Assembly: GCF_051903065.1 (NCBI RefSeq) | Contig: NZ_CP178438.1 | DNA from: Escherichia coli | GTDB lineage: Bacteria > Pseudomonadota > Gammaproteobacteria > Enterobacterales > Enterobacteriaceae | Length of the DNA stretch: 64,000 nt | Direction: 5' to 3' (one strand) | In this document: in pieces, positions 1 through 22,732 of the stretch | Layout of the letters: each line of letters opens with the position of its first letter | Numbering within the stretch: the first letter of the stretch is position 1 | Notes under the pieces: generated by a model | What the model was told of the DNA's origin: nothing | Database searches by the model: none | Seen by the model: only the letters and a program-made list of their open reading frames with translations | Program-made: the position numbers and the translations under genes

Positions 1-2271
1 ATGGCCGTTAAAGCCTCCGGGCGTTTTGTCCCTCCGTCAGCATTTGCCGCAGGCACCGGTAAGGCGTTTACCGGTGCTTATGCATGGAACGCGCCACGCG
101 AGGCTGTAGGGCGCGAAAGACCTCTTACACGTGACGAGATGCGTCAGGTGCAAGGTGTTTTATCCACGATTAATCGCCTGCCTTACTTTTTGCGTTCGCT
201 GTTTACTTCACGCTATGACTACATCCGGCGCAATAAAAGCCCGGTGCACGGGTTTTATTTTCTCACATCCACTTTTCAGCGTCGTTTATGGCCGCGCATT
301 GAGCGTGTGAATCAGCGCCATGAAATGAACACCGACGCGTCGTTGCTGTTTCTGGCAGAGCGTGACCACTATGCGCGCCTGCCTGGAATGAATGACAAGG
401 AGCTGAAAAAGTTTGCCGCCCGTATTTCATCGCAGCTTTTCATGATGTATGAGGAACTCAGCGATGCCTGGGTGGATGCGCATGGCGAAAAAGAATCGCT
501 GTTTACGGATGAGGCGCAGGCTCACCTCTATGGTCATGTTGCTGGCGCTGCACGTGCTTTCAATATTTCCCCTCTCTACTGGAAAAAATACCGTAAAGGG
601 CAGATGACCACGAGGCAGGCATATTCTGCCATTGCCCGTCTGTTTAACGATGAGTGGTGGACTCATCAGCTTAAAGGCCAGCGTATGCGCTGGCATGAAG
701 CGTTACTGATAGCTGTCGGGGAGGTCAATAAAGACCGTTCTCCTTATGCCAGTAAACACGCCATTCGTGATGTGCGTGCGCGCCGCCAGGCAAATCTGGA
801 ATTTCTTAAATCGTGTGACCTTGAAAACAGGGAAACCGGCGAGCGCATCGACCTTATCAGTAAGGTGATGGGCAGTATTTCTAATCCTGAAATTCGCCGG
901 ATGGAGCTGATGAACACCATTGCCGGTATTGAGCGTTACGCCGCCGCAGAGGGTGATGTGGGGATGTTTATCACGCTGACCGCGCCGTCAAAGTATCACC
1001 CGACTCGTCAGGTCAGAAAAGGCGAAAGTAAAACCGTTCAGCTTAATCACGGCTGGAACGATGAGGCATTTAATCCAAAGGATGCGCAGCGTTATCTCTG
1101 CCGCATCTGGAGCCTGATGCGCACGGCATTCAAGGATAATGATTTACAGGTCTACGGTTTGCGTGTCGTCGAGCCACACCACGACGGAACGCCACACTGG
1201 CATATGATGCTTTTTTGTAATCCACGCCAGCGTAACCAGATTATCGAAATCATGCGTCGCTATGCGCTCAAAGAGGATGGTGACGAAAGAGGAGCCGCGC
1301 GAAACCGTTTTCAGGCAAAGCACCTTAACCGGGGCGGTGCTGCGGGATATATCGCGAAATACATTTCAAAAAATATCGACGGCTATGCACTGGATGGTCA
1401 GCTCGATAACGATACCGGCAGACCGCTGAAAGACACTGCTGCGGCTGTTACCGCATGGGCGTCAACGTGGCGCATCCCACAATTTAAAACGGTTGGACTG
1501 CCGACAATGGGGGCTTACCGTGAACTACGCAAATTGCCTCGCGGCGTCAGTATTGCTGATGAGTTTGACGAACGCGTCGAGGCTGCTCGCGCTGCCGCAG
1601 ACAGTGGTGATTTTGCGTTGTATATCAGCGCGCAGGGTGGGGCAAATGTCCCGCGCGATTGTCAGACTGTCAGGGTTGCCCGTAGCCCGTCGGATGACGT
1701 TAACGAGTACGAGGAAGAAGTCGAGAGAGTGGTCGGCATTTACGCGCCGCATCTCGGCGCGCGTCATATTCATATCACCAGAACGACGGACTGGCGCATT
1801 GTGCCGAAAGTTCCGGTCGTTGAGCCTTTGACTTTAAAAAGCGGAATCGCCGCGCCTCGGAGTCCTGTCAATAACTGTGGAAAGCTCACCGGTGGTGATA
1901 CTTCGTTACCGGCTCCCACACCTTCTGAACACGCCGCAGCAGTGCTTAATCTGGTTGATGACGGTGTTATCGAATGGAATGACCAGGAGGTCGTGAGGGC
2001 GCTCAGAAGCGCATTAAAACACGGCCTGAGAAGACCAAACCGTCAGCAAAGAAACGGAAGTCCGTTAAAACCGCATGAAATAGCGCCATCGGCCAGACTG
2101 ACCAGGTCGGAACGAATGCAAATTACCCGTATCCGTGTTGACCTTGCTCAGAACGGTATCAGGCCGCAGCGATGGGAGATTGAGACGCTGGCGCGTGGCG
2201 CGACCGTAAATTATGGCGGGAAAGGATTCACGTATCCGGTCGCTGATGAGTGGCCGGAATTTGTAGTATAA
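1..2271 (+). CDS. A: P2-type replication initiation endonuclease gpA (rolling-circle, HUH family)
   Basis: 756-aa ORF starting at position 1; N-terminus MAVKASGRFVPPSAF matches my recollection of P2 gpA; HxH-like motif HWHMMLF and Tyr-rich YIAKYISK segment; followed by cos and Q/P as in P2 prophage order. Confidence 0.9.
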   Translation: MAVKASGRFVPPSAFAAGTGKAFTGAYAWNAPREAVGRERPLTRDEMRQVQGVLSTINRLPYFLRSLFTSRYDYIRRNKSPVHGFYFLTSTFQRRLWPRIERVNQRHEMNTDASLLFLAERDHYARLPGMNDKELKKFAARISSQLFMMYEELSDAWVDAHGEKESLFTDEAQAHLYGHVAGAARAFNISPLYWKKYRKGQMTTRQAYSAIARLFNDEWWTHQLKGQRMRWHEALLIAVGEVNKDRSPYASKHAIRDVRARRQANLEFLKSCDLENRETGERIDLISKVMGSISNPEIRRMELMNTIAGIERYAAAEGDVGMFITLTAPSKYHPTRQVRKGESKTVQLNHGWNDEAFNPKDAQRYLCRIWSLMRTAFKDNDLQVYGLRVVEPHHDGTPHWHMMLFCNPRQRNQIIEIMRRYALKEDGDERGAARNRFQAKHLNRGGAAGYIAKYISKNIDGYALDGQLDNDTGRPLKDTAAAVTAWASTWRIPQFKTVGLPTMGAYRELRKLPRGVSIADEFDERVEAARAAADSGDFALYISAQGGANVPRDCQTVRVARSPSDDVNEYEEEVERVVGIYAPHLGARHIHITRTTDWRIVPKVPVVEPLTLKSGIAAPRSPVNNCGKLTGGDTSLPAPTPSEHAAAVLNLVDDGVIEWNDQEVVRALRSALKHGLRRPNRQQRNGSPLKPHEIAPSARLTRSERMQITRIRVDLAQNGIRPQRWEIETLARGATVNYGGKGFTYPVADEWPEFVV

Positions 2272-2510
2272 GATAGCGCTTCAGGCTGTAATGCATTGTT
2301 TTGTATAGCATACTACATTTTTTGTAACATCTGTTCATGTTTTCTTTTCTATGCGTCATACTACGGCTATGGGTGGTCAGAGAAACAGGTTGCTGCTTAA
2401 ATGTATAAAAAGAGATGCTTTCATTTTTGATGAGATTTGCCATAACGTGGAGTATATATGGTAAAACTTATGAGACATAACATTTATACTATTATTAAAA
2501 AGGAGATTAT

Positions 2511-4178
2511 ATGCTGAGAACTTTTACAGGACAAAATTATAAAGCATACGAAAGCTTTAAGTTAGATTTAAAGCCATTGACAATATTGTTAGGTGCAAAT
2601 AGTTGTGGAAAAAGTGCACTAATTAACTCTTTGTTGATGTTTTCTCAGACAGTTGATTCAATGTCATTGTCTGACTCTGCTCTACGGCTGAATGGACCTA
2701 AAGTGGGAATGGGGGAAGCATTAAATATTATAAAAAATAAAGATGACTCCAAAACACTTAACTTTAGCTTTGATTTTTCTGATAATAGCGTAGTTAAAAA
2801 TGGCATTGATACTCTGAGAAGAGAAACTTTAGAATCATTTGCTATGATTATGCGATTCACTATACAGACAGTAAAAAATAATGATGAGTTGGTCGCGAAG
2901 GCCAATAATTTGATAAATGAATCTTTGAATGCTATTGTTAATTTTGATGAGTTTGAGGAGGCTAAATTAAATATTATTGCTGATAAATTGTGCCAGTTGA
3001 TTATGCTTTTTAGAGATGCTGGCAATAATATTATGTTTAGCCGGGCTACCTCAGAAAACTTACGCAGATTTATATATGAATGCCCATTGAAGAGAATCAA
3101 AGATTGCCTAACTAAAGTTGTTTCTATTTCAGGAAATAAATTGTCTGCATCTAAAATAAGTTATGACTTCAGATATGATAAAAATAAAGGTGTGGTAAAG
3201 GTTTCGAGATTTGTTCTTCTAAATAAGAATGATGAAAGAATAGTTGAACTGTTACCCAAAAAGAATAATGTCGTTGTATTGTCGGATGTTATCCCTCAAG
3301 AAGTATTTAGAGGATGTAAGTCTGATATCTTAGAAATCATGAATCCTTATTCTTTGGGGCTATTCCCTGTCAATGAAGGACGTGGTTTTTATGTTTTTTT
3401 TGGAAATTCCTACAACCCTGTTGTTAACTTTTTGTCACATGTTGTTTCTCTGGGAGTATTAATGCTTTCAAAAATGTTTGATGGCGAAAATGTTAATCAT
3501 GTCAGCCCGTTGAGGGCATTTCCTCAGCGTTATTATTTATTAGATAAAACAGTCAATCATGCTCAGTTAAATTCTGCTGATGGCTCTGAGTTGGCGGAGA
3601 TTCTGAAGAAAAATACAAAAATAACAGAAAACATAAACCTTCTTCTCGCTGAATTTAACTTAGCGGTTGATATAGTTAGAGTTAATGACATAATTCATAA
3701 GATAGTTATAAACCAAGATGCTGTTAATTTAGAATTGACAGATGTAGGGTTTGGAATATCACAAGTGTTGCCTGTCTTGGTTCAAGCTTATTTGTCACCA
3801 AAGGGCTCGATTACAATAATAGAACAACCAGAAATACATTTGCATCCTAAAATGCAGGCATGGTTAACTGACGCATTAATTAAAATATCTATGCAAGAAA
3901 AGAAAATTTTTATTATTGAAACACATAGTGATGCATTAGTTAGACGGATTAGATTAAGAATTGTTGATGAATCAAGCGAACTTACTGAGGACCATGTGGC
4001 AATCTATCATCTTGAGCGAGATGAAGAGGGAACATCAACCTTACTAAATAGAGTGGCTGTGAATTCTGATGGAGATATCACATGGCCAAATGAGTTTATG
4101 GATGTTGAGATTCAGGATACAATTAGAATACAGGAATTAAAGATACAAAAAATAATGAACTCAAAGGGAGTTCATTGA
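2511..4178 (+). CDS. ABC/OLD-type (AAA_15/AAA_21-like) ATPase, cargo gene 1 of A-Q hotspot; candidate defence ATPase (AriA/AbiLi/PtuA-like)
   Basis: 555 aa; Walker A GANSCGKS near N-terminus; Walker B/D-loop-like IIEQPEIHLHP and H-loop-like ETHSD near C-terminus with ~400-aa insertion between; very AT-rich; strong RBS AGGAG upstream. Confidence 0.75.
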   Translation: MLRTFTGQNYKAYESFKLDLKPLTILLGANSCGKSALINSLLMFSQTVDSMSLSDSALRLNGPKVGMGEALNIIKNKDDSKTLNFSFDFSDNSVVKNGIDTLRRETLESFAMIMRFTIQTVKNNDELVAKANNLINESLNAIVNFDEFEEAKLNIIADKLCQLIMLFRDAGNNIMFSRATSENLRRFIYECPLKRIKDCLTKVVSISGNKLSASKISYDFRYDKNKGVVKVSRFVLLNKNDERIVELLPKKNNVVVLSDVIPQEVFRGCKSDILEIMNPYSLGLFPVNEGRGFYVFFGNSYNPVVNFLSHVVSLGVLMLSKMFDGENVNHVSPLRAFPQRYYLLDKTVNHAQLNSADGSELAEILKKNTKITENINLLLAEFNLAVDIVRVNDIIHKIVINQDAVNLELTDVGFGISQVLPVLVQAYLSPKGSITIIEQPEIHLHPKMQAWLTDALIKISMQEKKIFIIETHSDALVRRIRLRIVDESSELTEDHVAIYHLERDEEGTSTLLNRVAVNSDGDITWPNEFMDVEIQDTIRIQELKIQKIMNSKGVH

Positions 4179-4179
4179 T

Positions 4180-5181
4180 ATGCTTTGTGCTGTTTGTTTG
4201 TGTCCTGAATTTGTTGCTGCTAATATTTCTGATGTTAAAGTTTTTAGCGGTTTTTTTATTGAAACCATTGTTAATGGTGAAAATGAGTTGATTCTTGATG
4301 CTGATGGAAAAATTCGCTTAGGTTATTTAAAGTCTTGCGGAAACAACAAGGATTCTTTTTTGTTTTTTAAGAAGTGGGAGTCTGAGTTATCTAAAGCTCC
4401 TTCAGGCAAGATATTGCGTACACCAGTGCCGAATAGTTCTGAGGATATTAAGGATATAGTTGTTTGTGCAGTTGCTAATGCAGCCACTACTTTTGATAAG
4501 CATATCGTAGTGTTAGATAATAATAGTTACTCTGGATATATTGATGAATTAATCAGGCAAAGGATTAATTTGTTAAATCTTAATAGTATAAGCTTAATAT
4601 CAAAGGATGGTCGAGTGCAGCGTCCTTTGAATTTTATAAAGTTTGATAGTGATTTATCTTGGGTGCTTCAAAGATTGGGGCGTCGCTCTGCTAAAGGATA
4701 TGGTGAAGATGATTTTAATGATTTTATACGGGATATGTTATTAGCTAAGAATTATGAGGTAAAAGATCAAACTAGAGAGGGAGAGTCTCAATCTGGTAAA
4801 AGTGCGGGTGAATTAGATCTTGTTATTGAAGATAAAGGAAATCTATTTGCTATAATAGAAGCATTGATTTTAAAATCTCTAGATCAAGCTAACATATTAA
4901 AGCATTATTCAAAGCTAATTAGTAACTATAATCCTATTAATGTTAAACGCTTGTTTTTAATTGCTTATTATACTGGTGCAAAATTTGATGCTTGGTGTGA
5001 GAGATACATTGATTATCTAAAAGAGATTACTCCGGTAGATATTGGTGTAGAATCTCATGAGATAGTTGGGATTAAAGAAGTGGAGACTCCATATATAGGT
5101 TTGAGAAAAATTGAACATCATTTTAGATATGCGGGAGAACATTATTTTTGTGTTCATTATGCAGTCAAGATGGCTCGGTGA
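4180..5181 (+). CDS. Partner protein of hotspot ATPase, putative nuclease effector (PD-(D/E)xK-like or TOPRIM/DUF4435-like)
   Basis: 333 aa; ATG 1 nt after upstream TGA (translational coupling); motifs GELDLVIEDKG (D-x3-E-x-K) and IETIV..LDADG (E...DxD); AT-rich. Confidence 0.6.
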   Translation: MLCAVCLCPEFVAANISDVKVFSGFFIETIVNGENELILDADGKIRLGYLKSCGNNKDSFLFFKKWESELSKAPSGKILRTPVPNSSEDIKDIVVCAVANAATTFDKHIVVLDNNSYSGYIDELIRQRINLLNLNSISLISKDGRVQRPLNFIKFDSDLSWVLQRLGRRSAKGYGEDDFNDFIRDMLLAKNYEVKDQTREGESQSGKSAGELDLVIEDKGNLFAIIEALILKSLDQANILKHYSKLISNYNPINVKRLFLIAYYTGAKFDAWCERYIDYLKEITPVDIGVESHEIVGIKEVETPYIGLRKIEHHFRYAGEHYFCVHYAVKMAR

Positions 5182-5193
5182 TGTTTAATATGA

Positions 5194-5218
5194 ATGCACC
5201 TATAGGGTGCATCATTTT
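5194..5218 (+). terminator. Putative terminator of the hotspot operon
   Basis: Hairpin ATGCACC-TATA-GGGTGCAT followed by CATTTTG directly after the stop at 5181. Confidence 0.45.
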
Positions 5219-5318
5219 GCATGTTTAAATACGTTCTCTATGTATGTGCGCTAGGCTTGACTGGCGCGCTTGTACTATGTTTATGCAACTGCATTAAAAC
5301 CGACCCATGAAGCGGGCG

Positions 5319-5337
5319 GGCGAGGCGGGGAAAGCAC
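5319..5337. other. cos: P2-type cos site (19-nt cohesive end sequence)
   Basis: GGCGAGGCGGGGAAAGCAC matches the P2 cohesive-end sequence as I recall it; lies between the A-side cargo and portal gene Q, where P2 cos sits. Confidence 0.6.
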
Positions 5338-5478
5338 TGCGCGCTGGCGGTGGTGCTGATTTTATTTTTTCAGCGTCTGAGCGCGTCGTGATGGCGTTTA
5401 GTCGGCCTGCCGGGGCGTTGGTGTGTCTGCGGGGTGTTTTGTACAGTGGCGAACGTGTGAGGGCGTGATGACGGGGTG

Positions 5479-5501
5479 TAAAAAAGCCGCCCGCAGGCGG
5501 C
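5479..5501 (-). terminator. Rho-independent terminator downstream of Q (minus strand)
   Basis: Minus-strand hairpin GCCGCC-TGCG-GGCGGC followed by a T-run, immediately 3' of the Q stop. Confidence 0.5.
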
Positions 5502-5506
5502 GATGT

Positions 5507-6541
5507 TCAGCCGTTGTCAGTGTCCAGTGAGTAGTTTTTAAATCGGATGACCTCCTGACCGAGCCAGCCGTTTATCTCGCGGATCCTGTCCTGTAACGGG
5601 ATAAGCTCATTGCGGACAAAGACCTTTGCTACTTTCTCAATATCGCCCAGCGACCCGACGTTCTCCGGCTTGCCGCCCATCAACTGAAAGGGGATGCGGT
5701 GCGCGTCCAGCAGGTCTGCGGCACTGGCTTTTTTGATATTAAAAAAATCGTCCTTCGTCGCCACTTCACTGAGCGGGATAATTTTAATGCCGTCGGCTTT
5801 TCCCTGCGGGGCATAGAGAAACAGGTTTTTAAAGTTGTTGCGGCCTTTCGACTTCACCATGTTTTCGCGAAGCATTTCGATATCGTTGCGATCCTGCACG
5901 GCATCCGTGACGTACATGATGTATCCGGCATGTGCGCCGTTTTCGTAATACTTGCGGCGGAACAGAGTGGCCGACTCATTCAGCCAGGCAGAGTTAAGGG
6001 CGCTGAGATATTCCGGCAGGCCGTACAGCTCCTGATTAATATCCGGCTCCAGCAGGTGAAACACGGAGCCGGGCGCGAAAGGTGTCGGCTCGTTGAAGGA
6101 CGGCACCCACCAGTAAACATCCTCTTCCACGCCACGGCGGGTATATTTTGCCGGTGAGGTTTCCAGTCTGATGACCTTACCGGTGGTGCTGTAACGCTTT
6201 TCCAGAAACGCATTGCCGAACACCAGAAAATCCAGCACAAAGCGGCTGAAATCCTGCTGGGAAAGCCACGGGTGCGGAATAAACGTTGAAGCCAGAATAT
6301 TACGTTTGACGTAAATCGGTGAGCTGTGATGTACGGCAGCACGCAGGCTTTTTGCCAGACCGGTAAAGCTGACCGGTGGCTCATACCATCTGCCGTTACT
6401 GATGCACTCGACGTAATCCAGAATGTCACGGCGGTCGAGTACCGGCACCGGTTCACCAAAGGTGAATGCCTCCATTTTCGGGGCGCTGGCGGTCATTTTT
6501 TTTGCCGCTAGTCGCGGTGTTTTCCCTTTTTTCTTGCTCAT
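5507..6541 (-). CDS. Q: Portal protein gpQ
   Basis: 344 aa, size and sequence character of P2 Q; overlaps start of P; conserved position next to cos. Confidence 0.9.
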   Translation of the reverse strand: MSKKKGKTPRLAAKKMTASAPKMEAFTFGEPVPVLDRRDILDYVECISNGRWYEPPVSFTGLAKSLRAAVHHSSPIYVKRNILASTFIPHPWLSQQDFSRFVLDFLVFGNAFLEKRYSTTGKVIRLETSPAKYTRRGVEEDVYWWVPSFNEPTPFAPGSVFHLLEPDINQELYGLPEYLSALNSAWLNESATLFRRKYYENGAHAGYIMYVTDAVQDRNDIEMLRENMVKSKGRNNFKNLFLYAPQGKADGIKIIPLSEVATKDDFFNIKKASAADLLDAHRIPFQLMGGKPENVGSLGDIEKVAKVFVRNELIPLQDRIREINGWLGQEVIRFKNYSLDTDNG

Positions 6542-8313
6542 CAGTAAAACTCCAGAATGGTGGATGTCAGCGGAGTGCTGATACCCGCGGTGAGTGGCTC
6601 ATTTAACAGGGCGTGCATGGTCGCCCAGGCGAGGTCGGCGTGGCTGGCTTCCTCGCTGCGGCTGGCCTCATAGGTGGCACTGCGTCCGCTGCTGGTCATG
6701 GTCTTGCGGATAGCCATAAACGAGCTGGTGATGTCGGTGGCGCTGACGTCGTATTCCAGACAGCCACGGCGGATGACGTCTTTTGCCTTGAGCACCATTG
6801 CGGTTTTCATTTCCGGCGTGTAGCGGATGTCGCGCGCGGCGGGATAGAACGAGCGCACGAGCTGGAACACGCCGACACCGAGGCCGGTGGCATCAATACC
6901 GATGTATTCGACGTTGTATTTTTCGGTGAGTTTGCGGATGGATTCAGCCTGGGTGGCAAAGTCCATGCCTTTCCACTGGTGACGCTCAAGTATTCTGAAT
7001 TTGCCACCGGCCACCACCGGCGGTGCCAGCACCACGCATCCGGCACTGTCGCCACGGTGTGACGGGTCGTAACCAATCCAGACCGGGCGGGAGCCGAACG
7101 GATTCGCGGCAAACGGCGTATAGTCTTCCCATTCTTCCAGCGTGTCGACCATGCAGCGTTGCAGCTCCTCGAACGGGAATACCGACGCCTTGTCGTCAAC
7201 AAATTCACACATGAACAGGTTTTTAAAATCGTCGGCGCTGTTTTCGCGTTTAAGCTGCTCAATGTCGAACAGCGTGCAGCCACCTTTCAGGGCGTCCTCA
7301 ATGGTGACAATCTGCCGCCACTGGCCGTCCGCACAGAGAAGCCCACCGGCAAGGGCGTTATGACTGACGTCGATTTCCACGCGTTCGGCGGCGCTGGCGC
7401 GTCCCCGGTTGAACAGTTCACCCGACCAGAACGGATAGGCGTCGTGCGCCAGCGTGGACGGGGTGGAGAAATAGGTCGAGCGCAGGTGACTCTGTGAGGC
7501 CATACCTGATGCCACCTTACGCAGTACCTGAAAATTCGGGATCCAGAAAATCTCATCGACGTACAGGTCGCCGTTATGGCTCTGCGCGGTGTTGGAGTTG
7601 GTGCCGAGAAAAATCAGTTTTGCGCCGTTATTGCCCAGGACAATCGGGTCACCGGTCAGGTCAACGTCAACCAGCCGGGCAAAGGCGATGATGTATTCGC
7701 GGAACACATACGCCTGCGTTTTACTGGCCGACAGAAAAATCTGGTTATGACCGGTTTTCAGGGCGCGCAGCAGCGCCTCGCGGGAAAAATAAAACGTCGC
7801 GCCAATCTGGCGGGATTTCAGGATATCGCGGATGCGGTGCTCAAGCCCGGCGCGATACCAGTGCAACTGATAGTCGAAAGACTGCTCAAAGAAAATCTGC
7901 TCCAGCTTTTCGATGGCCTCGTCACTGAAAAAATTCTTTTTCGGTTTGCGACGCCCGCCTTTGTTGCGGTTAGCGACGTTCGGATTAAGGTCTGCCTCGT
8001 TGCCGGTCTGACTGTAGCGGTTGACCCGCGCCAGCCGTTCAATCTGGCGTCCCAGCAGGTCAATTTCCTTGAAGTCACCGCCGGTTTTCTGCGGTTTGAT
8101 GATGAGCTGGGTCAGCCGCGCTTCCAGACTCATTTCGACACGGCTGATGGGGGCAACGCTGTCCCAGCCGTCGCGCTGTTTCCAGCTCTGCACCGTCGGG
8201 CGTTTCATCTGCAACATGGCGGCAATCTGCGGCACGGAAAACCCCTGCCAGTACAGCAGCGCCGCCTGACGACGCGGGTCGTGTAAAAGAGTGGTGTCTG
8301 TGGTGATGGTCAT
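6541..8313 (-). CDS. P: Terminase large (ATPase) subunit gpP
   Basis: ORF 6541..8343; start taken at MTITTDTTLL (ATG at 8311-8313 on minus strand) as in P2 gpP; divergent from O. Confidence 0.88.
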   Translation of the reverse strand: MTITTDTTLLHDPRRQAALLYWQGFSVPQIAAMLQMKRPTVQSWKQRDGWDSVAPISRVEMSLEARLTQLIIKPQKTGGDFKEIDLLGRQIERLARVNRYSQTGNEADLNPNVANRNKGGRRKPKKNFFSDEAIEKLEQIFFEQSFDYQLHWYRAGLEHRIRDILKSRQIGATFYFSREALLRALKTGHNQIFLSASKTQAYVFREYIIAFARLVDVDLTGDPIVLGNNGAKLIFLGTNSNTAQSHNGDLYVDEIFWIPNFQVLRKVASGMASQSHLRSTYFSTPSTLAHDAYPFWSGELFNRGRASAAERVEIDVSHNALAGGLLCADGQWRQIVTIEDALKGGCTLFDIEQLKRENSADDFKNLFMCEFVDDKASVFPFEELQRCMVDTLEEWEDYTPFAANPFGSRPVWIGYDPSHRGDSAGCVVLAPPVVAGGKFRILERHQWKGMDFATQAESIRKLTEKYNVEYIGIDATGLGVGVFQLVRSFYPAARDIRYTPEMKTAMVLKAKDVIRRGCLEYDVSATDITSSFMAIRKTMTSSGRSATYEASRSEEASHADLAWATMHALLNEPLTAGISTPLTSTILEFY

Positions 8314-8379
8314 GAATACCTCGCCGTGATGAATACACGGCAAGGCTACTGAGTCGCGCCCTGCGATTCGCTAAGGTGC

Positions 8380-17949: not shown

Positions 17950-19827
17950 ATGAGCACAAAATTCAAAACCGTTATCACCACTGCCGGTGCAGCAAAGCTG
18001 GCAGCGGCAACCGCACCGGGAGGGCGGAAGGTCAACATTACCACGATGGCCGTCGGGGATGGCGGTGGTAAATTGCCTGTCCCGGATGCCGGACAGACCG
18101 GGCTTATCCACGAAGTCTGGCGACATACGCTGAACAAAATCAGCCAGGACAAACGAAACAGTAATTATATTATCGCAGAGCTGGTTATTCCGCCGGAGGT
18201 GGGCGGTTTCTGGATGCGTGAGCTTGGCCTGTACGATGATGCGGGAACGTTAATTGCCGTGGCGAACATGGCCGAAAGTTATAAGCCTGCCCTTGCCGAA
18301 GGCTCAGGGCGTTCGCAGACCTGCCGCATGGTCATCATCGTCAGCAGTGTGGCCTCAGTGGCGCTGACCATTGACACCACAACGGTGATGGCAACGCAGG
18401 ATTACGTTGATGACAAAATTGCAGAACATGAACAGTCACGACGTCACCCTGACGCCTCGCTGACCGCAAAAGGTTTTACTCAGTTAAGCAGTGCGACCAA
18501 CAGCACGTCTGAAACGCTCGCCGCAACACCAAAAGCTGTTAAGACGGTAATGGATGAAGCGAACAAAAAAGCGCCATTAAACAGCCCTGCACTGACCGGA
18601 ACGCCAACGACGCCAACTGCGCGACAGGGAACGAATAATACTCAGATCGCAAACACGGCTTTCGTTATGGCCGCGATTGCCGCCCTTGTAGACTCGTCGC
18701 CTGACGCACTGAATACGCTGAACGAGCTGGCGGCGGCGCTGGGCAATGACCCGAATTTTGCTACCTCCATGACTAATGCGCTTGCGGGTAAGCAACCGAA
18801 AGATGCCACTCTGACGGCGCTGGCGGGGCTTGCTACTGCGGCAGACAGCTTTCCGTATTTTACGGGGAATGATGTTGCCAGTTTGGCAACCCTGACAAAA
18901 GTCGGGCGGGATATTCTGGCTAAAGCGACCATTGCTGCCGTTATCGAATACCTCGGTTTGCAGGAAACGGTAAACAGGGCCAGGAACGCGGTGCAAAAGA
19001 ATGGCGATACCTTGTCCGGCGGGATTACTTTTGAAAACGACTCAATCCTTGCCTGGATTCGAAATACTGACTGGGCGAAGATTGGATTTAAAAATGATGC
19101 CGATGGTGACGCTGATTCATACATGTGGTTTGAAACGGGGGATAACGGCAATGAATATTTCAAATGGAGAAGCCGCCAGAGTACCACAACAAAAGACCTG
19201 ATGACGCTGAAATGGGATGCACTAAATATTCTTGTTAATGCCGTCATTAATGGCTGTCTTGGAGTTGGTACGACGAATGCACTAGGTGGTAGCTCTATTG
19301 TCCTTGGTGATAATGATACCGGATTTAAACAGAATGGAGACGGTATTCTTGATGTTTATGCTAACAGTCAGCGTGTATTCCGTTTTCAGAATGGAGTGGC
19401 TATTGCTTTTAAAAATATTCAGGCAGGGGATAGTAAAAAGTTCTCGCTATCCAGCTCTAACACATCCACGAAGAATATTATCTTTAATTTATGGGGTGCT
19501 TCCAACCGTCCAGTGGTTGCAGAGTTAGGCGATGAGTCCGGATGGCATTTCTATAGCCAGCGAAATACAGATAACTCGGTAATATTTGCTGTTAACGGTC
19601 AGATGCAACCCAGCAACTGGGGGAATTTTGATTCCCGCTATGTGAAAGATGTTCGCCTGGGTACGCGAGTTGTTCAATTGATGGCGCGAGGTGGTCGTTA
19701 TGAAAAAGCCGGACACACGATTACCGGATTAAGAATCATTGGTGAAGTAGATGGCGATGATGAGGCCATCTTCAGGCCGATACAAAAATACATCAATGGC
19801 ACATGGTATAACGTTGCGCAGGTGTAA
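17950..19827 (+). CDS. H: Tail fibre protein gpH
   Basis: 625 aa; MSTKFKTVITTAGAAKLAAATAPG N-terminus as recalled for P2 H; C-terminal part AT-richer. Confidence 0.88.
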   Translation: MSTKFKTVITTAGAAKLAAATAPGGRKVNITTMAVGDGGGKLPVPDAGQTGLIHEVWRHTLNKISQDKRNSNYIIAELVIPPEVGGFWMRELGLYDDAGTLIAVANMAESYKPALAEGSGRSQTCRMVIIVSSVASVALTIDTTTVMATQDYVDDKIAEHEQSRRHPDASLTAKGFTQLSSATNSTSETLAATPKAVKTVMDEANKKAPLNSPALTGTPTTPTARQGTNNTQIANTAFVMAAIAALVDSSPDALNTLNELAAALGNDPNFATSMTNALAGKQPKDATLTALAGLATAADSFPYFTGNDVASLATLTKVGRDILAKATIAAVIEYLGLQETVNRARNAVQKNGDTLSGGITFENDSILAWIRNTDWAKIGFKNDADGDADSYMWFETGDNGNEYFKWRSRQSTTTKDLMTLKWDALNILVNAVINGCLGVGTTNALGGSSIVLGDNDTGFKQNGDGILDVYANSQRVFRFQNGVAIAFKNIQAGDSKKFSLSSSNTSTKNIIFNLWGASNRPVVAELGDESGWHFYSQRNTDNSVIFAVNGQMQPSNWGNFDSRYVKDVRLGTRVVQLMARGGRYEKAGHTITGLRIIGEVDGDDEAIFRPIQKYINGTWYNVAQV

Positions 19828-19830
19828 GTA

Positions 19831-20358
19831 ATGCAGCATTTAAAGAACATTAAGTCAGGTAATCCAAAAACAAAAGAGCAATATCAGCTAACAAAGAATT
19901 TTGATGTTATCTGGTTATGGTCCGAAGACGGAAAAAACTGGTATGAGGAAGTAAGTAATTTTCAGCCAGACACAATAAAGATTGTTTACGATGAAAATAA
20001 TATTATTGTCGCCATCACCAGAGATGCTTCAACGCTTAATCCTGAAGGTTTTAGCGTCGTTGAGGTTCCTGATATTACTGCCAACCGGCGTGCTGATGAC
20101 TCAGGTAAATGGATGTTTAAGGATGGTGCCGTGATTAAGCGGATTTATACGGCAGACGAACAGCAGAAACTGGCGGAATTACATAAGGCAGCTTTGCTTT
20201 CCGAAGCTGAATCCGTGATTTTGCCGCTGGAGCGCGCGGTCAGGCTGAATATGGCAACAGATGAGGAGCGTAGTCGACTGGAGGCATGGGAACGCTATAG
20301 TGTTCTGGTCAGTCGTGTGGATCCTGCAAATCCTGAATGGCCGGAAATGCCGCAATAA
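19831..20358 (+). CDS. G: Tail fibre assembly chaperone gpG
   Basis: 175 aa [21 protein letters not shown]2 G-like. Confidence 0.88.
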
Positions 20359-20457
20359 GTTGTATGAGCTCTGGTGTGAGCTTACATATCTATGGCACAG
20401 AGTAAAGCCTAATCTGACAGTCCGTTCTGTGCCAGTAGCGGACGTTTGAATAAATTA

Positions 20458-20486
20458 TTGACTAACTAAAGTTTTTGGCATTAAAT
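20458..20486 (+). promoter_or_regulatory. Putative sigma70 promoter for the HEPN-motif cargo gene
   Basis: TTGACT, 17-bp spacer, TTAAAT; ~35 bp upstream of GGAG RBS and ATG 20527. Confidence 0.35.
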
Positions 20487-20526
20487 TTTCAATTAAAATG
20501 TTCGCATTGATTTATTGGAGTAAATA

Positions 20527-21480
20527 ATGGATATACATGCAAAAAGAGTTGGCAGTCCACTTTATAAAATTATTATGTACTTAAATAAGTATGAAGAAGA
20601 TACACTGGAAGACATAAAACTTCAGTTTCTTTTAAAAAATTTAAAAACTCATTTCAAGAAACTGTTTTATATGATTACTTACATTAATAAAATTCAAAAA
20701 GATGCTGAGTTCATCAGAAAACATGATGCAACATCAATTGTCAGCATTAGTGCTATTGAGTATTGCTATTATAAAATCAGCACGATATGGGATATTGCAT
20801 ATCAGATAGCTGATAAATTAATTTTCCCAACTAAAAAAAATGGCAATAAATATGATTACCTTGAAAATCATTTCCAGCAATATGCACAGGAATTTCCAGA
20901 TTTGAATTTAAAATGGTATAAGGACTTTAATAAAATAAGAAATAAGATAGTTCATGGAGGGATAACAGTAAATCCTTATTATGTCAACGATGATAATATT
21001 AAAACAAAGATTTGTTTCCAAGCATATGACTCTGATCTAAACGATCTGATTCAACCTCATATGATGTATTCAAATAGATTCAATAACAATATTAATTTTG
21101 CTGATTACTATTTTACCTTTTATACTCATCTTCTCTATTCATATCTTTTTGATTTTTTTGATTTTGTACTTCTTGAGCTAAACAAAGATAAATCACATGA
21201 TTTAGACAATCTTATTCTTGATGATATACCGCACAAATTGTTTGGTGCTCATCATGAAACATGGTTGTTATCTGATGTTGATCAATTTATGAAAATTACA
21301 AGAGAAATGATTTCCCTACAAATAGCTGATGGTTGTTTAAATAAAATTGAGAAAATACCCTCAAGTGATATTGAACATTTTTTTAACAACTTTCCATTTT
21401 GTCTTATGACAAAGGTTAGCTCCGGAGATTGGGTATTGGTTGAGGATAAAGCGGCTGAAACAAAGTCATCGGACACTTAA
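20527..21480 (+). CDS. HEPN-motif (Rx4H) protein, Abi-like candidate, cargo in the G-FI (Z/fun) hotspot
   Basis: 317 aa; very AT-rich, Lys/Asn/Tyr/Phe-rich; motif RNKIVHGG (R-x4-H); own promoter-like elements. Confidence 0.55.
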   Translation: MDIHAKRVGSPLYKIIMYLNKYEEDTLEDIKLQFLLKNLKTHFKKLFYMITYINKIQKDAEFIRKHDATSIVSISAIEYCYYKISTIWDIAYQIADKLIFPTKKNGNKYDYLENHFQQYAQEFPDLNLKWYKDFNKIRNKIVHGGITVNPYYVNDDNIKTKICFQAYDSDLNDLIQPHMMYSNRFNNNINFADYYFTFYTHLLYSYLFDFFDFVLLELNKDKSHDLDNLILDDIPHKLFGAHHETWLLSDVDQFMKITREMISLQIADGCLNKIEKIPSSDIEHFFNNFPFCLMTKVSSGDWVLVEDKAAETKSSDT

Positions 21481-21774
21481 ATTTTTTTTGTGCCAAAGTC
21501 TACTCCTCGCTCGTCACAGGCTTTGGCATTCGTTTCAACAACCAAGTGATAGCATATATTGTGACCTGCACCCCGTTGATTCATACATCCTCGATGTAAG
21601 CAATCCCTTGAGAACGTCCACTCCTCGCTCTTAGCAGATCACACGGTTCTTCAAACGATCCGCTTCGTACCAGAAACGAACTTTTATCTCAAATTTGAAC
21701 CTTTTAGTGGATGACGACGTTTGTGTCTTCAAGTAGTCTTAAAAGCATGCGGATAGTGCATAGGAAAAGCAGAA

Positions 21775-22611
21775 GTGATCGATGACCCACTACCAGAAAA
21801 CTGGCAAGACCTCCAGACAGGGGTCCAACGTATATTCCGTAATGTTGGCTTGTTTGCAGAAGTCGAGGTCGATTTAGAAACCCCGCGTGGCTCGGTGAAT
21901 GTGGATGTTCTTGCTACAGATGTTAGGAGCGTGGACAAAATCAGATACATTGTGGAATGCAAAAACTGGGGTAGTTCTATACCACAGACGGTGGTCCATT
22001 CGTTCACCACGGTAATGCATGAAACCGGGGCTAATATTGGATTTATTATTTCAAAGCACGGGCTTCAGCAGGGTGCTAAACAGTACACTCAAAACACCAA
22101 TATTATTGGGATGACATACCTTGAGTTCCAAAAAAGGTATTTTGAGGCTTGGTGGAATAGATACTTTTGTCCACGTATCGGTGATGCTGCAGACGAACCG
22201 CTTCAGTACGTCGAACCAATCAACTCTAAACGAGATCGCGAATACGCCAAGCTAAGCCTTCAAGCACAAGAGAAGTTCGATCAGTTAAGGCAAGAGAAAG
22301 GTGTATCAGTAGTGGTTCTCTCTATGCTCAATTACAAGTTTATGTCGAAAGCATTAAACACTGGTAACTTGCTGGAAGTCCCAAATAATCTGGATGATTT
22401 TAAGAACAGAGTTCTCTCCCGAATATGTCCTCACATTGAATGGCATTGTGATACGTACAGAGAGCTGCTAGAGCTCATCTTGCAATACTTATCAGTCACA
22501 AAAGCAGAGTTTGATGCAATATTTGGTCGGGCCATCTTTGAACCGCCAAGTAGTATCACGGGGGTTACGGCTGAAGGTCCCCCTTTAGACGATGGTATTT
22601 ATCATCATTAG
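21775..22611 (+). CDS. PD-(D/E)xK restriction-endonuclease-like (Mrr_cat-like) protein, cargo in the G-FI hotspot
   Basis: 278 aa, GTG start; N-terminal VNVDVLATD ... YIVECKNW (D ... E-x-K nuclease signature). Confidence 0.55.
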   Translation: MIDDPLPENWQDLQTGVQRIFRNVGLFAEVEVDLETPRGSVNVDVLATDVRSVDKIRYIVECKNWGSSIPQTVVHSFTTVMHETGANIGFIISKHGLQQGAKQYTQNTNIIGMTYLEFQKRYFEAWWNRYFCPRIGDAADEPLQYVEPINSKRDREYAKLSLQAQEKFDQLRQEKGVSVVVLSMLNYKFMSKALNTGNLLEVPNNLDDFKNRVLSRICPHIEWHCDTYRELLELILQYLSVTKAEFDAIFGRAIFEPPSSITGVTAEGPPLDDGIYHH

Positions 22612-22732
22612 TTTCATACATAAACCATGCTCCCGCATGTCCGCATTTCGCTCAAAGCAGACTGTCAGATTTGATAGCGTTTGGGCTATGTAAACTGTCA
22701 GTCGGAAAATGAGTGTGTGCAAATCAGGACAG

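Follow-up and report, generated by a model that had tools for sequence, protein, structure and literature searches.

The 333-amino acid protein encoded directly downstream of an ABC ATPase gene in the window (the whole 64,000-nucleotide stretch of Escherichia coli contig NZ_CP178438.1 that was analyzed) is probably the nuclease effector of a two-gene anti-phage cassette in the gpA-gpQ hotspot of a P2-like prophage, acting by the mechanism proposed below. Its predicted structure combines an N-terminal PIN-like domain with a C-terminal domain of the PD-(D/E)xK type, and its closest analogue is the NsnB-NsnC module of Menshen without NsnA, with an effector head outside the 15 that have been described.

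The window begins within the gpA gene, and gpA and the portal gene gpQ border a 2.7-kb island with about 32% GC, compared to about 55% GC for the backbone (Table 1). The island contains exactly two genes, those for the ATPase and the 333-amino acid partner. Only one base separates the ATPase stop codon from the partner ATG, and this layout suggests that the two genes are translationally coupled. The leader upstream of the ATPase gene presumably carries the cassette promoter; a promoter scan of 2200-5600 gave no score above shuffle expectation. In P2 the gpA-gpQ interval is a defence hotspot, occupied by old and tin in P2 itself, and the cargo found there is mostly validated defence systems (PMC9122126). 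The same pair is present in the supplementary table of that study (Rousset et al., PMC9122126), where WP_024249463 is listed with WP_032259585 or WP_024249462 as "AAA_15/AAA_21 + hypothetical"; the pair is catalogued there, and no statement that it was assayed was found. No paper on the ATPase-partner pair was found, the unannotated supplementary row being the sole appearance that was located.

Table 1. Coordinates of the cassette and its borders in the window, and conservation of residues in the partner protein (close family, 35 members; wider family, about 200 representatives of the domain at 50% identity clustering).
Feature	Position	Strand	Remarks
Replication endonuclease gpA (P2-type)	1-2271	+	Left hotspot border; PHROG 91, E = 0; RefSeq "replication endonuclease"
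AT-rich intergenic leader	2272-2510	+	Strong Shine-Dalgarno AAGGAG, 2500-2505
ABC ATPase, 555 aa	2511-4178	+	Putative regulator or sensor of partner; Pfam AAA_15 and AAA_21
Gene junction	4163-4182	+	Shine-Dalgarno-like AAAGGGAG, 4163-4170, within end of ATPase gene; TGA 4176-4178; partner ATG 4180-4182
Two-domain partner (putative effector), 333 aa	4180-5181	+	ORF; AF2 model pLDDT 85.9
PIN-like domain, residues 1 to about 140	4180-4599	+	Canonical PIN acidic tetrad absent
PD-(D/E)xK (restriction-endonuclease or Mrr-like) domain, residues about 152-333	4633-5178	+	Fold predicted by AF2
GELDLVIEDKG, residues 210-220	4807-4839	+	G210, E211, D213 conserved; E217 within family only; K219 variable
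E227 through K245	4858-4914	+	Invariant E227, H242, K245
Hairpin directly 3' of partner stop	5194-5212	+	Terminator-like, weak T tract
Portal protein gpQ (P2-type)	5507-6541	-	Right hotspot border; PHROG 68, 4.8e-176; RefSeq "phage portal protein"
Large terminase	6541-8343	-	Beyond gpQ
E28			Close 7/35, usually Gly
D40			Close 35/35
D42			Close 5/35
E176			Close 34/35; wider 196/197; opens first core helix
D196			Close 35/35; wider 198/201
Q197			Close 35/35; wider 201/201
D213			Close 35/35; wider 200/201; start of core strand 2
E217			Close 34/35; wider 78/203
K219			Close 5/35; wider 31/203
E227	4858-4860		Close 35/35; wider 200/200; core strand 3
H242			Close 35/35; wider 198/199; helix after strand 3
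K245	4912-4914		Close 35/35; wider 197/199; helix after strand 3

The cassette adjoins gpA and the cos-proximal region, a position that could suit a housekeeping nuclease and ATPase involved in replication, recombination, or cos processing of P2-like phage, but such a role is highly improbable. The pair is rare, found in five of 5426 complete E. coli genomes, while the last ~240 bases of the query, adjoining gpQ, have matches in more than 2000 genomes, and almost all P2-like prophages lack the cassette. It is also found in both orientations and outside phages, in Budviciaceae and Pseudomonas, and has a GC content foreign to the backbone. Distribution, orientation, and composition all speak against a phage housekeeping role.

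Two other regions of the prophage deserve mention. The ~240 bp upstream of gpQ (5259-5500) are 90-93% conserved in more than 2000 E. coli records, some of which are plasmids; this conservation fits a cos-proximal backbone common to P2-like phages and possibly also to P4-like satellites. A second low-GC island (19000-22700, 36-42% GC) follows a 625-amino acid ORF (17950-19827) in the tail-fibre position. One ORF in this island (20527-21480, 317 amino acids) has no significant family match, and another (21775-22611, 278 amino acids) begins with an Mrr_cat restriction-endonuclease domain (i-E 7e-11) and matches PDC-S02 of PADLOC weakly (3e-5). The second island may be a further defence cargo locus, at the P2 Z/fun position.

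The two genes of the cassette are consistently found together. At all 17 loci recovered with a full-length partner homologue (eleven IMG/VR contigs, an E. coli chromosome hit, two Pseudomonas, one Budviciaceae chromosome, and two short metagenome contigs), an AAA_15/AAA_21 ATPase gene is immediately upstream, abutting or overlapping, and the pairing is still seen where the partner is only 38-40% identical and at an HMM E-value as weak as 8e-34. Ten of the loci have a P2-type gpA on one side and gpQ or terminase on the other, with five oriented as in the window, five inverted, and no third gene between the flanks. Other loci are in an AlpA-type island in Pseudomonas and an ordinary chromosomal neighbourhood in Budviciaceae, neither with a DUF262 neighbour. 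No third conserved gene, and no NsnA (ParB-DUF262) gene, accompanies the pair at any of the 17 loci. With constant pairing, varied locations, and no third gene, the pair behaves as a self-contained, horizontally mobile two-gene cassette.

Individual copies show some irregularities. In one IMG/VR P2-like contig (L015:4242-6000), the ATPase is split into ORFs 4242-4562 and 4582-6000 next to an intact partner gene; the split is either a pseudogenised gene or a sequencing error and, if real, would speak against lethal toxicity of the effector on its own. E. coli PSJ-12 (NZ_AP027622.1 1270902-1286102) carries the same cassette in a rearranged or degraded P2-like prophage, in whose annotation tail protein X and the terminase (labelled "oxidoreductase") are truncated and the integrase adjoins pflA. 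The AFDB entry A0A921K2K5 is 100% identical to the E. coli partner protein and is labelled Ligilactobacillus acidipiscis in UniProt/AFDB, most likely due to contamination of a metagenome-derived assembly.

The best PADLOC match of the ATPase is NsnB (2.3e-51), followed by the HEC-03 model (5.2e-43), PDC-M55A (4.7e-41), and AriA (3.3e-28). The sequence has Walker A GANSCGKS (28-35), GFG (413-415), IIEQPE (436-441), and the H-loop ETHS (470-473), and in 12 homologues the Walker A GxNSxGKS, the GFG that replaces the ABC signature SGG, the Walker B IIEQPE, and ETHS are all invariant. The natural E-Q of the Walker B is like the EQ substitution that has been engineered into ABC ATPases to abolish hydrolysis. 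Taken with GFG, these motifs suggest that the ATPase may act as an ATP-binding switch. An insert at residues 73-325 (2727-3485 of the window) is 28% identical between homologues, compared to 70-76% for the ABC core; such divergence fits diversifying pressure and makes the insert a candidate phage-sensing surface. The AF2 model (pLDDT 79.9, pTM 0.81) ends in a helix at 534-551, and the closest solved folds in Foldseek are GajA, the retron-Eco8 effector, Rad50, OLD, and PtuA, all with low TM-scores (0.31-0.37). The fold search places the ATPase among the defence and SMC/Rad50 ABC ATPases and cannot tell oligomeric models apart; the top 50 Foldseek PDB matches do not include AriA. Pfam DUF3696, the tail of NsnB, is marginal, with three of the 12 homologues matching at E <= 0.1 and none at <= 0.001.

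The partner has no match in PHROGs, none in the PDB by sequence profile, and none to DUF4435. Its best Pfam (PDDEXK_4, i-E 0.12) and PADLOC (CARF_PDDEXK, E 0.02) matches are not significant, and in NCBIfam only purC appears, below threshold (E 0.005, 16 bits against a cutoff of 190). About 50 homologue clusters from Enterobacterales and Pseudomonas are all annotated as hypothetical. The domains were resolved by structure prediction only, and not by sequence-library searches: the AF2 model, built on a 35-sequence alignment, has two domains with a low-confidence linker between them. In the model the C-terminal domain has the alpha-beta-beta-beta-alpha-beta core of restriction endonucleases (helix 176-189, strands 193-195, 214-218, and 221-231, helix 236-249, and strand 257-264), followed by three extra C-terminal strands. 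Its restriction-fold matches are BamHI (8.6), BstYI (8.3), BglII (8.1), OkrAI (8.1), and CdiA-CT(EC869) (7.9), with McrC (7.2), SwaI (7.2), HamA (6.2), and NucC (6.0) further down. In AFDB50, Foldseek returned the same family and then proteins with the C-terminal domain only, named "restriction endonuclease" or "Mrr domain-containing." A sequence-only reading of the partner had offered two alternative nuclease signatures and proposed searching with the predicted structure for either fold; one of them, the restriction-endonuclease fold, was found, so the outcome of neither fold was not seen.

The first of those signatures, GELDLVIEDKG, is present as described and had been taken as the D-h-h-h-E-x-K of a PD-(D/E)xK nuclease, although its residues were numbered six too low (D207, E211, and K213 are actually D213, E217, and K219). 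The assignment to PD-(D/E)xK agrees with the predicted fold and with the invariance of D213, but not with the other two residues: E217 is not retained in the wider family and K219 is variable even in the close family. The apparent ExK, E217-D-K219, is a coincidence in a hairpin. Among 20,000 composition-preserving shuffles of the partner protein, the strict D-h-h-h-E-x-K pattern occurs in 0.7%, and a looser D-x3-[DE]-x-K occurs in 21%.

Conservation mapped on the predicted fold suggests a different set of residues. The active site is probably formed by E176, D213, E227, and K245, with D196, Q197, and H242 nearby. Two residues after E227, where a canonical ExK has its lysine, the residue is hydrophobic in every case (Leu, Met, or another), and the catalytic lysine appears to be K245, supplied by the helix after strand 3. 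With Leu or Met at the canonical position, the predicted catalytic competence hinges on this putative relocated lysine. Core strands 1 and 2 are joined by the loop TREGxSxSGxxAG (residues 198-210, 4771-4809), which ranks with the most conserved parts of the domain family; it is beside the active site, and no other segment of the model has a pLDDT below 50. It may serve, as a flexible loop, in substrate binding or regulation. With the nuclease reading settled, the targets for mutagenesis become D213, E227, K245, and E176, rather than E217 and K219 or E28 and D42.

The last two residues belong to the second signature, IETIV...LDADG near the N-terminus, which is also present, with E28, D40, and D42 correctly numbered. 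It had been read as TOPRIM-like, and in that case an AriA-like ATPase would release the partner as a TOPRIM nuclease of the AriB kind, as in PARIS. A PARIS-type system would be consistent with the secondary AriA match of the ATPase, with E28...D40-x-D42 in the partner, and with the niche, as PARIS also occupies P2 and P4 hotspots (PMC9122126). This reading is contradicted by the partner fold, Pfam, and residue conservation: no TOPRIM protein is among the 60 listed structure matches, DUF4435 is lacking, and only D40 of the three residues is invariant. The string itself has no statistical weight, because 50% of the shuffles contain its pattern, E-x(8-16)-DxD. The partner as a TOPRIM or PARIS protein is ruled out by fold, Pfam, and conservation, and the likelihood that the pair is PARIS-type is negligible.

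The best description of the N-terminal domain is a PIN that is catalytically degenerate. Its invariant residues are C6, P9, D40, G76, K77, T103, and N114; strand 1 has invariant C6, C8, and P9 in place of the essential Asp of PIN RNases, and a conserved acid after strand 3 is absent. The only remnants of the PIN acids are D40 at the end of strand 2 and D113 (25/35) or N114 after strand 4, so that the D-E-D-D tetrad of VapC-like PIN domains is not present. A role as a docking or adaptor domain, or as an RNA-binding domain, is proposed. In a word-index-limited search with a profile of the N-terminal domain, no PIN-like domain on other heads was found, only truncated copies from the same family.

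Since HEC-03 couples a related ATPase with a VapC-like PIN protein, the PIN-like domain might instead be the true RNase effector, as proposed for HEC-03, with the restriction-fold domain as a non-catalytic nucleic-acid binder or sensor. The absence of the canonical ExK lysine from the C-terminal domain, the placement of D40 and D113/N114 where two of the four PIN acids are expected, and the inactive restriction-fold domains that serve as sensors in NsnA would all suit this arrangement. The loss of the strand 1 Asp and the strand 3 acid makes it unlikely, however, as does the fact that the N-terminal domain is the less conserved half of the protein (38% identity between homologues, compared to 52% for the C-terminal domain). 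Moreover, the acidic, Lys, and His set of the C-terminal domain is near-invariant in about 200 distant relatives, and that domain takes the effector position in other immune proteins.

[quoted passage not shown] An exhaustive profile search recovered 1110 representative proteins (50% clustering), 752 of them at E <= 1e-10, and most of the 1110 matches cover only residues about 140-331. In a sample of 28 carriers, the Pfam domains upstream include Roc-COR-LRR GTPase architectures in seven, nSTAND3 in one, and Schlafen AlbA_2 in one. One 558-amino acid carrier matches PADLOC LmuA (2.2e-30), another adjoins a 1271-amino acid nSTAND3 gene, and a third is encoded alone on a conjugative element. The domain family is outside every Pfam, NCBIfam, PHROG, and PADLOC model. 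Judged from these sequences, the distribution is as would be expected of a toxic output domain in immune or conflict systems.

Of the known systems, Menshen (Millman 2022; Li et al. NAR 2025, PMC12065111) is the most similar. NsnB has GxG and a substituted Walker B, EN; NsnC has an N-terminal inactive PIN, classed in families inPIN1-35, and a C-terminal effector from one of 15 families, including BECR, Toprim, PLD, DUF4160, PB-UF1, and DUF2103-like, none with a restriction-endonuclease fold; and an AlphaFold3 prediction has the C-terminal helices of NsnB clamping the inactive PIN of NsnC (PMC12065111). The ATPase in the window, for which NsnB is the top HMM, has the AAA_15 match, the GxG in place of SGG, and the substituted Walker B of an NsnB-type OLD-ABC ATPase, as well as a C-terminal helix. 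The partner has the architecture of NsnC, a degenerate PIN-like domain followed by a nuclease head, and its gene is directly downstream of the ATPase. The differences are the lack of the NsnA sensor gene at the 17 loci, the restriction-endonuclease-fold head, the ~250-residue hypervariable insert in the ATPase, and the marginal DUF3696 tail.

Other systems are comparable in part. HEC-03, an ABC ATPase with a PIN protein, confers protection on E. coli that depends on both genes (Payne et al., bioRxiv 10.1101/2024.01.29.577857). It resembles this pair in having two genes in the same order, a PIN fold, and a related ATPase, but its partner is described as a VapC-like PIN, whereas here the PIN-like domain is without catalytic acids and is fused to PD-(D/E)xK; the partner has no match to the HEC models in PADLOC. 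HEC-02 (ABC ATPase and NERD) and Lamassu (Cap4, PDDEXK, or Mrr effectors) also combine an ABC-type ATPase with a nuclease of the PD-(D/E)xK superfamily, although with other families of that superfamily, without a PIN-like adaptor, and with ATPases from other clades, including the long coiled-coil SMC of Lamassu. Because HEC-02 pairs an ABC ATPase with a NERD-type protein, the combination of ATPase and PD-(D/E)xK is not new as such. PARIS is likewise a two-gene ABC ATPase and nuclease system of the same hotspot niche, but NsnB and HEC-03 models far outscore AriA models, and the family is excluded by the DUF4435 TOPRIM character of AriB; PARIS is still a useful mechanistic analogy, and its logic of an ATPase that sequesters and then releases the effector is the working model adopted here. 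Compared to BamHI, BglII, BstYI, OkrAI, and Mrr-type catalytic domains, to which it is 9-12% identical, the partner has a hydrophobic residue two positions after the strand 3 Glu and an invariant HxxK on the next helix, and it gives no indication of elements for sequence-specific DNA recognition or of a methyltransferase working with it.

In the mechanism proposed, the PIN-like domain would tether the effector to the ATPase oligomer, by analogy with the NsnB helices clamping the inactive PIN of NsnC. The variable insert of the ATPase would sense a phage cue and the nucleotide state would change, the E-Q Walker B suggesting slow hydrolysis or switch-like behaviour. The ATPase would then release or allosterically activate the restriction-fold nuclease, and the nuclease would cut nucleic acid, either DNA or RNA, to stop the infection, perhaps abortively.

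The same two proteins could also be a toxin-antitoxin or addiction module that stabilises the prophage or island, in which the ATPase would neutralise a toxic nuclease and the pair would have no dedicated anti-phage role. The genes are tightly coupled and on mobile elements, Pfam AAA_21 is named for the AbiEii toxin, and HEC-03 is toxic when induced. Such a module is improbable given that validated defence systems dominate the cargo of the hotspot (PMC9122126), that the closest ATPase families (NsnB, HEC-03, AriA, GajA, and PtuA) are all anti-phage, and that loss of either gene is non-toxic in the related PARIS; toxin-antitoxin and defence roles are also not mutually exclusive.

A more specific form of the preferred reading, a nuclease effector in a defence cassette, can be put forward tentatively. 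The pair may be a free-standing module of the NsnBC type that does without NsnA, in which the ATPase insert itself senses the phage. The head would then belong to an unnamed Mrr-like family with a relocated lysine (E...D...E...HxxK), reused as a death or effector domain by ROCO GTPases, STAND NTPases, and Schlafen-like and Lamassu-like proteins. With a profile of the C-terminal domain, many effectors in immune proteins of the ROCO, STAND, and Lamassu-like kinds could be annotated. If the pair functions as proposed, the restriction-fold head joins the repertoire of PIN-adaptor effectors, a pair of the NsnB-NsnC type can exist without a ParB-like sensor, and a compact two-gene cassette native to E. 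coli would allow direct tests of how such ABC ATPases sense phage.
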